NCBI RefSeq assembly: GCF_044324785.1
Contig: NZ_CP172127.1
Length of the DNA stretch: 64,000 nt
Reading direction: 5' to 3' (one strand)
DNA from: Escherichia coli
Lineage (GTDB): Bacteria; Pseudomonadota; Gammaproteobacteria; Enterobacterales; Enterobacteriaceae
The notes beneath the pieces were generated by a model. The model had not been told where the DNA came from and made no database searches. It saw only the letters and a list, made by a program, of their open reading frames with translations. The position numbers and the translations under genes were made by a program. Positions 12,907 through 13,067 of this stretch are shown here, one piece after another; position 1 is the stretch's first letter, and every line of letters starts with the position of its first letter.

Positions 12907-12935
12907 TGGGGGAGACTATATAAGGTCTCGGACTG

Positions 12936-13026
12936 TCCCCTCGCCCCTTTGGGGAGAGGGTTAGGGTGAGGGGAAAGTGCGCGCTGAGCCCCTCACCCCG
13001 GCCCTCTCCCCAAAGGGGCGAGGGAG
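12936..13026. repeat. Pair of inverted GC-rich palindromic intergenic repeat units (REP/boxC-like)
   Basis: cccctcgcccctttggggagagggttagggtgagggg (12936-12972) and its near reverse complement cccctcaccccggccctctccccaaaggggcgagggag (12989-13026); a third copy lies at 15664-15707. Confidence 0.6.
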
Positions 13027-13067
13027 AAAAACGTGTACGACTTTAGCTTTTTCGCAGTATTGCCGTC

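Follow-up and report, generated by a model that had tools for sequence, protein, structure and literature searches.

BoxC elements are strictly intergenic repeats, dispersed in about 20-30 copies in Escherichia coli and its relatives. Each unit consists of a 9-10-bp GC hairpin, formed by CCCTCNCCC and GGGNGAGGG, and of a third G-rich block that follows it. The family reportedly goes back to the work of Bachellier and colleagues in the 1990s, and to that of Hoyne and Maher in 2000-2002. REP elements are likewise GC-rich intergenic palindromes; their consensus is a GTAG-tagged imperfect palindrome (GTAGGCCGGATAAGGCG...CGCCGCATCCGGC, with Z variants).

The consensus of BoxC, for which the names PIT and TMECO (for triplex motif) came later, is 5'-CCCTCNCCC-N3-6-GGGNGAGGG-N3-GGGNGAGGG-3' (Holder et al., NAR 2015, PMC4666352). 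The 23 copies of MG1655 are all intergenic, and across E. coli strains the copies are dispersed over 60 or more loci, 63 TMECO loci being given in that study. All five inverted pairs of K-12 combine one unit of type A with one of type B. Single PIT elements displayed neither promoter nor terminator activity, and left no triplex footprint in vivo. In vitro, according to the same paper, isolated G-rich single strands fold into an intrastrand triplex of the purine motif; CD and NMR document this for oligonucleotides of types A and B, in versions with one mismatch and with none. A "palindrome effect" and raised local variability have also been described for these elements (Holder et al., PMC4666352).

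The stretch of DNA analyzed here (64 kb; the window) is E. coli-like; its best match among complete genomes, strain N3, is 98.3% identical over 25 kb, and none of the complete E. coli genomes is near-identical to it. Between the stop codons of lfhA and yafL, as bounded by the two open reading frames, lies a spacer of 161 nt (12907..13067, no strand assigned), which coincides exactly with the interval given in the original prediction. The lfhA gene is represented by a 579-aa ORF on the plus strand (11167..12906), whose stop bounds the spacer. This ORF is a pseudogene remnant of the Flag-2 deletion, as in K-12; it is colinear with K-12 positions 248363-252325 and free of gaps. The larger lfhA/lafU remnant (10437-12906) is also colinear with its K-12 counterpart, with no gaps. 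On the other side, yafL, coding for a peptidase of the C40/NlpC-P60 family, occupies the minus strand (13068..13826) and is convergent with lfhA.

Most of the spacer is taken up by a composite of two inverted units with tails on both sides. The left tail, TCTCGGACTG followed by T (12928..12937, plus strand), can be aligned with its counterparts in four BoxC pairs of K-12 (CTCGGnCnGT). It is followed by unit A, CCCTCGCCCCTTTGGGGAGAGGGTTAGGGTGAGGGG (12938..12973, plus strand), which is of type A, with TTA as the second loop and one mismatch in the stem. The 15-nt segment between the units, AAAGTGCGCGCTGAG (12974..12988, no strand assigned), is near-palindromic around GCGCGC and doubles as the 5' extension of unit B; it is similar to the short spacer of the K-12 hrpB-mrcB pair (GAACGTGCGCGCTGATG), which is likewise centred on GCGCGC. 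Unit B, of type B with CCG as the second loop, reads CCCTCGCCCCTTTGGGGAGAGGGCCGGGGTGAGGGG on the minus strand (12989..13024). The right tail, AGAAAAACGT (13025..13034, plus strand), is shared with the third unit of the window (AGAAAA) and with the K-12 pairs (AGAAAAcgGTG). Finally, a possible remnant of a REP, CCGTCCTAC (13063..13071, plus strand), overlaps the TAG stop of yafL (13068-13070). A repeat search returns the inverted arms at 12938-12973 and 12989-13024, 36 nt each and 92% complementary, with 15 nt between them. The original prediction, which had units of about 38 bp set 16 bp apart, was thus right about the inverted pair and off by a trivial amount in the measurements.

The third unit, C, is a solitary BoxC of type B on the minus strand (15657..15713), in the spacer between yafJ (14829-15596, minus strand) and gmhA (15718-16296, minus strand), 2.7 kb away from the pair. 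It had been predicted between these two genes, at 15664-15707, and is indeed found there; its core, CCCTCTCCCTTTCAGGGAGAGGGCCGGGGTGAGGGTAA on the minus strand, is located at 15670-15707. Unit C resembles unit B over 57 nt (15657-15713) with 82% identity.

With high confidence, the best explanation of this feature overall is an inverted pair of a type-A and a type-B BoxC (PIT, TMECO) element, accompanied by one solitary type-B BoxC. The consensus, run as a regular expression over the 64 kb, matches at 12938 (plus strand), 12990 (minus strand) and 15673 (minus strand) and nowhere else. A 21-mer taken from the unit, allowed up to three mismatches, finds exactly the same three units in the window and has no match in 100 dinucleotide-preserving shuffles of it. 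The second loop is TTA in unit A and CCG in units B and C, so that the pair is of the A+B kind. Unit A, of the "type A mm" class, is identical to K-12 TMECO nos. 7, 11 and 15 (Table 1 of PMC4666352), unit B, "type B mm", is identical to no. 3, and unit C is one nucleotide off no. 10. When four K-12 pairs are aligned with the pair in the window, the likeness reaches past the cores into both tails and, for the hrpB-mrcB pair, into the short spacer. Every one of the three units lies between genes. With a 57-nt query, complete E. coli genomes have a median of 15 places and at most 32, and strain N3 has 16; only 39 of the 73,229 places are on plasmids. The motif is therefore multi-copy and not peculiar to these sites, as the original prediction had proposed to establish by a copy-number search. 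Rfam has no family for the BoxC element, and the names of yafL, lfhA, gmhA and other genes of the region had no match in the supplements of PMC4666352. Every testable defining feature of BoxC is present in these units, and those of REP/BIME are missing.

The gmhA|yafJ spacer holds the solitary BoxC in the window, and one to many REPs in K-12, in E. albertii and in other Escherichia; the BoxC and REP alleles have identical outer junctions. The window-like version of this spacer is found in only 329 of 5,426 genomes. Along the approximately 35 kb that are syntenic with K-12, the REPs of K-12 form three clusters, one at gmhA|yafJ and two that flank rayT, while the window has no REP anywhere in its 64 kb. 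At both of the slots that bear REPs in the syntenic region, BoxC thus stands in for REP. That the window lacks REPs was also considered as a signal in its own right and was discarded as uninformative when taken alone: K-12 has REPs only at these two slots, and what remains of the window is an island.

Over the window (15597-15717) and the 14 loci compared with it, the gmhA|yafJ spacer is a "landing pad" for repeats across Enterobacteriaceae. Escherichia species have between 1 and about 16 REPs in it, several Citrobacter species have REP-like pairs, and Citrobacter FP75 and MGH106 have what we take to be a long ERIC-like element. Elsewhere in the neighbourhood, the dinJ-yafQ toxin-antitoxin pair, which in K-12 lies between yafL and dpaA (yafK), is missing from the window (13827-14117). 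Strain N3, E. albertii and two further representatives of Escherichia lack it as well; its absence is thus probably the ancestral state, and K-12 carries an insertion. Further along, about 31 kb (20600-52100) are missing from K-12, between the K-12 matches at approximately 239.1 kb and 238.0 kb; the corresponding position in K-12 is the yafT-yafU region, about 1 kb beyond aspV. This stretch has very large ORFs, for example that at 22411-26640 (1,409 aa), for which the closest genome has the annotation RHS core protein, and looks like an Rhs/secretion-system island.

The spacer 12907..13067 is the BoxC-pair allele of a multi-allelic slot between convergent genes. The most common occupant of this slot among 5,426 complete E. 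coli genomes is rayT with its REPs, in single copy (3,575 genomes, 66%), followed by a hicAB toxin-antitoxin pair (1,480 genomes, 27%); these two alleles make up 93% of the genomes. The BoxC pair of the window type, counted where at least 80% of window positions 12800-13200 was covered, accounts for 127 genomes (2.3%). The remaining 244 or so (4.5%), a figure obtained by subtraction, contain a REP/BIME array without rayT, a collapsed pair, a duplicated version and others. Strain JCM 5491 represents the pure REP/BIME array with no rayT, FDAARGOS_497 has the collapsed BoxC pair, and MB53 and a Pseudocitrobacter MAG have the duplicated version, in which the 3' end of lfhA is present a second time in diverged form. 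All these alleles have GAGTTGATGGG(GGA), or a sequence derived from it, as their left flank, and they come together again at AAAATCGTCTC beside the yafL stop. That some E. coli genomes are devoid of a RAYT gene has been published (PMC8049555).

The duplicated version in MB53 (positions 675-1075 of locus L006; also seen in locus L009) is a partial tandem duplication. It comprises, in this order, a lone type-B unit, about 90 nt of unrelated sequence, a diverged second copy of the last 35 nt or so of lfhA, and the full pair.

The polarity of these changes was examined in species-representative genomes that have YafL. In eight Citrobacter species the spacer is short, 43-44 nt, and consists of a plain GC hairpin and a T-run; this terminator-like hairpin between convergent genes is a plausible ancestral "empty" state. 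The REP-rayT-REP arrangement is seen in E. albertii, in two other Escherichia species and in one E. coli representative, and Pseudocitrobacter faecalis also has a rayT allele. P. vendiensis, on the other hand, has the BoxC pair, adjoining a full-length lfhA (697 aa), and its spacer is identical to that of the window at 159 of 161 positions; in strain N3 the identity is 100%. In the rayT alleles, the REP next to the yafL stop ends in the same nonamer, CCGTCCTAC, that the window has at 13063-13071; in its place the hicAB allele and Citrobacter have TTTAC or TTAC.

These observations would fit a scenario in which rayT and its REPs were ancestral in Escherichia, and the BoxC composite later displaced REP-rayT-REP, with 9 nt of REP surviving beside the end of yafL. 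The BoxC allele would then have spread between lineages by homologous recombination in the flanking genes. Displacement of REP-rayT is probable because rayT is found in other Escherichia species and the 9-nt REP end is kept at the yafL stop; the argument is of moderate strength, as it rests on an identity of 9 nt, 3 of them supplied by the stop codon of yafL, and on a sparse sample of outgroups. The BoxC allele may also be old rather than derived, since a Pseudocitrobacter species has it, as do E. coli strains whose Flag-2 cluster is intact.

The same BoxC spacer allele occurs together with full-length lfhA, and apparently intact Flag-2, in strains WP4-S18-ESBL-07, VCSW7 and PCN033, and together with the lfhA remnant in the window, so that the spacer allele and the Flag-2 deletion have been reshuffled by recombination. 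The yafL-lfhA end of the Flag-2 region in P. faecalis and P. vendiensis is 93-94% identical to the window at the DNA level, closer than that of E. albertii (about 90%), although what lies upstream of it differs. The genus Pseudocitrobacter has the rayT as well as the BoxC allele of the spacer. These data suggest either that the Flag-2 end passed between genera or that the polymorphism is trans-species. The yafL gene of the window is approximately 93.5% identical to that of K-12 and 97% to that of the closest genome, and its neighbors dpaA, yafJ, gmhA and fadE are about 98% identical to K-12. The unusual divergence of the genes that flank the cassette slot suggests recombinant haplotypes.

Within the BoxC allele, the cores are near-invariant amid flanking divergence of about 5%. 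In seven haplotypes, six of them E. coli-like and the seventh from P. vendiensis, mean pairwise divergence is 5.4% for lfhA, 5.0% for yafL and 1.3% for the 103-nt composite. Of the 72 core positions, one segregates. The coding flanks have 136 segregating sites among 1,040 (Fisher p = 0.0012 against the cores), and the remaining 89 positions of the spacer have 11 (p = 0.013). This could be the work of selection, of gene conversion between copies, or of one haplotype having spread recently.

The inverted pair amounts to a palindrome with 36-bp arms. Of the triplex motif, nearest-neighbour folding gives only the 9-10-bp hairpin. The segment 12900-13070, folded as RNA and dominated by the long hairpin of the pair, reaches -103 kcal/mol on one strand and -95 kcal/mol on the other, with z about -9; the pair itself (12930-13032), folded as DNA, reaches -45 kcal/mol. 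As for the triplex in vitro, the control oligonucleotide printed in PMC4666352 is the sequence of unit A with four G-to-C changes, and one of the oligonucleotides tested there was probably identical to unit A. In FDAARGOS_497, 64 nt between two GGGG runs have been lost, leaving the hairpin CCCTCGCCCCTTTGGGGCGAGGG, a chimera that can be written as CCCTCGCCCC-TTT-GGGGCGAGGG. The hrpB-mrcB pair, intact in about 65% of genomes, displays an allele series parallel to that of lfhA|yafL: in the O111 strain 8234 a 64-nt collapse of this kind leaves a simple hairpin, RM9872 has a 12-nt internal deletion, and in strains such as IMT5155 (B2) the element is missing altogether. The natural collapsed alleles at the two loci record structure-mediated deletion by way of hairpins, in agreement with the palindrome effect and the local variability described in PMC4666352. 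A BoxC pair is thus most likely a structure-forming obstacle that promotes local deletion and rearrangement, and yet its cores stay almost invariant.

What the pair might do for its neighbors is a separate matter. In transcripts from either gene it would form a very stable 3' stem-loop, just where the Citrobacter spacer has a bidirectional terminator in the form of a plain hairpin. It is conceivable, if rather unlikely, that the pair is kept as a bidirectional barrier to transcription, or as a stabilizer of the 3' ends of lfhA and yafL transcripts, in replacement of the ancestral terminator hairpin. Such a role, which concerns function and is compatible with BoxC identity, would be in line with the GC hairpin and T-run of the Citrobacter spacer, with folding energies of about -100 kcal/mol on both strands, and with cores that are significantly more conserved than the coding flanks. 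However, the pair has no U-tract: the stems lack the T-run that would be expected of an intrinsic terminator, the sequence after them being AGAAAAACG on the plus strand and GACAGTCCG on the minus strand. A scan of 12700-15900 for promoters and terminators returned nine terminator-like sites, none of them at a BoxC unit, and no promoter-like site adjacent to one. The published tests of single PIT/BoxC elements also speak against terminator activity (PMC4666352), and lfhA is a pseudogene remnant, so that one side needs no terminator. A terminator or RNA-stabilizer role of the pair is something that we only infer.

The dispersal of BoxC brings up another, improbable, reading, in which the pair is a non-autonomous mobile element, akin to REPINs or MITEs. 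Some transposase would have brought it here and to gmhA|yafJ, or it would have entered REP or terminator hairpins by an insertion that targets structure. A doublet of inverted, closely spaced hairpin units, whose conserved tails recur at several loci, does recall the architecture of a REPIN; the elements occupy 60 or more loci across E. coli strains (PMC4666352), and both BoxC sites of the window are REP slots in K-12. Yet no target-site duplication is seen at the pair or at unit C, no candidate transposase lies nearby, and the boundaries between presence and absence of the hrpB-mrcB pair are ragged rather than precise. The literature reports no association with transposons, phages or plasmids (PMC4666352), in agreement with the paucity of plasmid places among those found by the 57-nt query. 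Equally doubtful is a broader proposition, that BoxC pairs are a second, REPIN-like class of intragenomic replicators, or a sequence homogenized by gene conversion, which competes with REP/BIMEs for intergenic landing pads. If this were true, the REP-RayT system would, in some lineages, have lost its home locus to BoxC pairs, and the near-invariance of the cores, the Pseudocitrobacter allele and the BoxC-for-REP replacement at both slots would be signs of active maintenance rather than of passive junk.

The preferred reading, a BoxC pair and a solitary BoxC, departs most clearly from the original prediction, according to which the units are REP/BIME-type elements that stayed behind when the transposase gene was lost and the rayT site became empty. 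Part of the premise holds. In K-12, rayT (yafM, b0228) is situated between yafL and lfhA, flanked by canonical REPs of the GCCGGATGCGGCG...CCTAC and GTAGGCATGATAAGACGCG types, and the window has no such gene: K-12 RayT compared by tblastn with the whole window gives a best E of 0.19. Neither of the findings named beforehand as refuting the prediction, a motif unique to these sites or rayT sequence in the alignment, is thus seen. The occurrence of rayT at this site in E. albertii and other Escherichia species makes its loss plausible, and a 9-nt REP end is still present at the yafL stop. The units themselves, however, are not REPs. They have no GTAG-tagged palindrome of the GCCGGATGCGGCG type, and they match BoxC exactly. 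The Y, Z1 and Z2 REPs, compared with the window by blastn-short, give no match longer than 12 nt, regular expressions for REPs have no hits in the window, and direct comparison of the units with the REPs of the K-12 rayT locus finds no similarity; conversely, the K-12 lfhA|yafL locus has no copy of the unit and no BoxC. At the level of the sequence, the REP/BIME reading is refuted, and it retains very little probability.

The notion of a site left empty is misleading as well, since the spacer has a different occupant, the BoxC composite, which seems to have ousted REP-rayT-REP, with no more than 9 nt of a REP end remaining. A genuine allele with REPs and without rayT is known in other strains and looks quite unlike the window, as in JCM 5491 with its three REP pairs; and the plausible ancestral empty site is the 43-44-nt terminator-like hairpin of Citrobacter. 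Last, that the hairpin is a gene for a small structured RNA can be dismissed almost entirely: the matches to many miRNA precursor models of Rfam, seen at permissive thresholds (best 37.9 bits, E about 1e-4), are all far under the gathering scores, as in 37.9 against 83, and fall on both strands and on unrelated eukaryotic hairpin families, with no promoter-like site adjacent, and were discarded as generic artefacts of long hairpins.

The BoxC family has been known since the 1990s and was restudied between 2000 and 2015, and the feature described here is real but ordinary. Its least ordinary aspects are the replacement of REP by BoxC at two slots and the degree to which the cores are conserved. 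Its significance is mainly that of a correction: the element is not to be reported as REP/BIME or as a scar of rayT excision. Beyond that, the home locus of rayT is a cassette slot with four or more alleles, and the natural alleles record the hairpin-mediated collapse of BoxC pairs. Conservation of the BoxC cores above that of the adjacent coding sequence keeps alive the old question of how BoxC is maintained.

Compared with known systems, the pair has the same position between convergent genes as a rho-independent bidirectional terminator, such as the Citrobacter hairpin, and both are strong GC stems; the BoxC pair differs in the lack of a U/T tract on either side and in a far longer stem (36 bp). 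With the REP/BIME/REPIN elements and their RayT, it shares the slots, both window sites being held by REPs in K-12, the nature of a GC-rich intergenic palindrome, and, in the inverted doublet, a REPIN-like layout. It differs from them in having no sequence similarity, no GTAG tag and no BIME linker motifs, in the lack of a cognate RayT in the window, and in a copy number that is about 10 times lower. With BoxC/PIT/TMECO, the units of the window have in common the consensus, the loop types, the inverted A+B pairing, the intergenic location and a comparable copy number, as well as a variable neighborhood with palindrome-effect collapses, which are also seen at this locus. The lfhA|yafL and gmhA|yafJ spacers are outside the 23 copies of K-12, and the 15 nt between the units are at the short end when set against the 16-59 nt of K-12 BoxC pairs; nothing essential differs.
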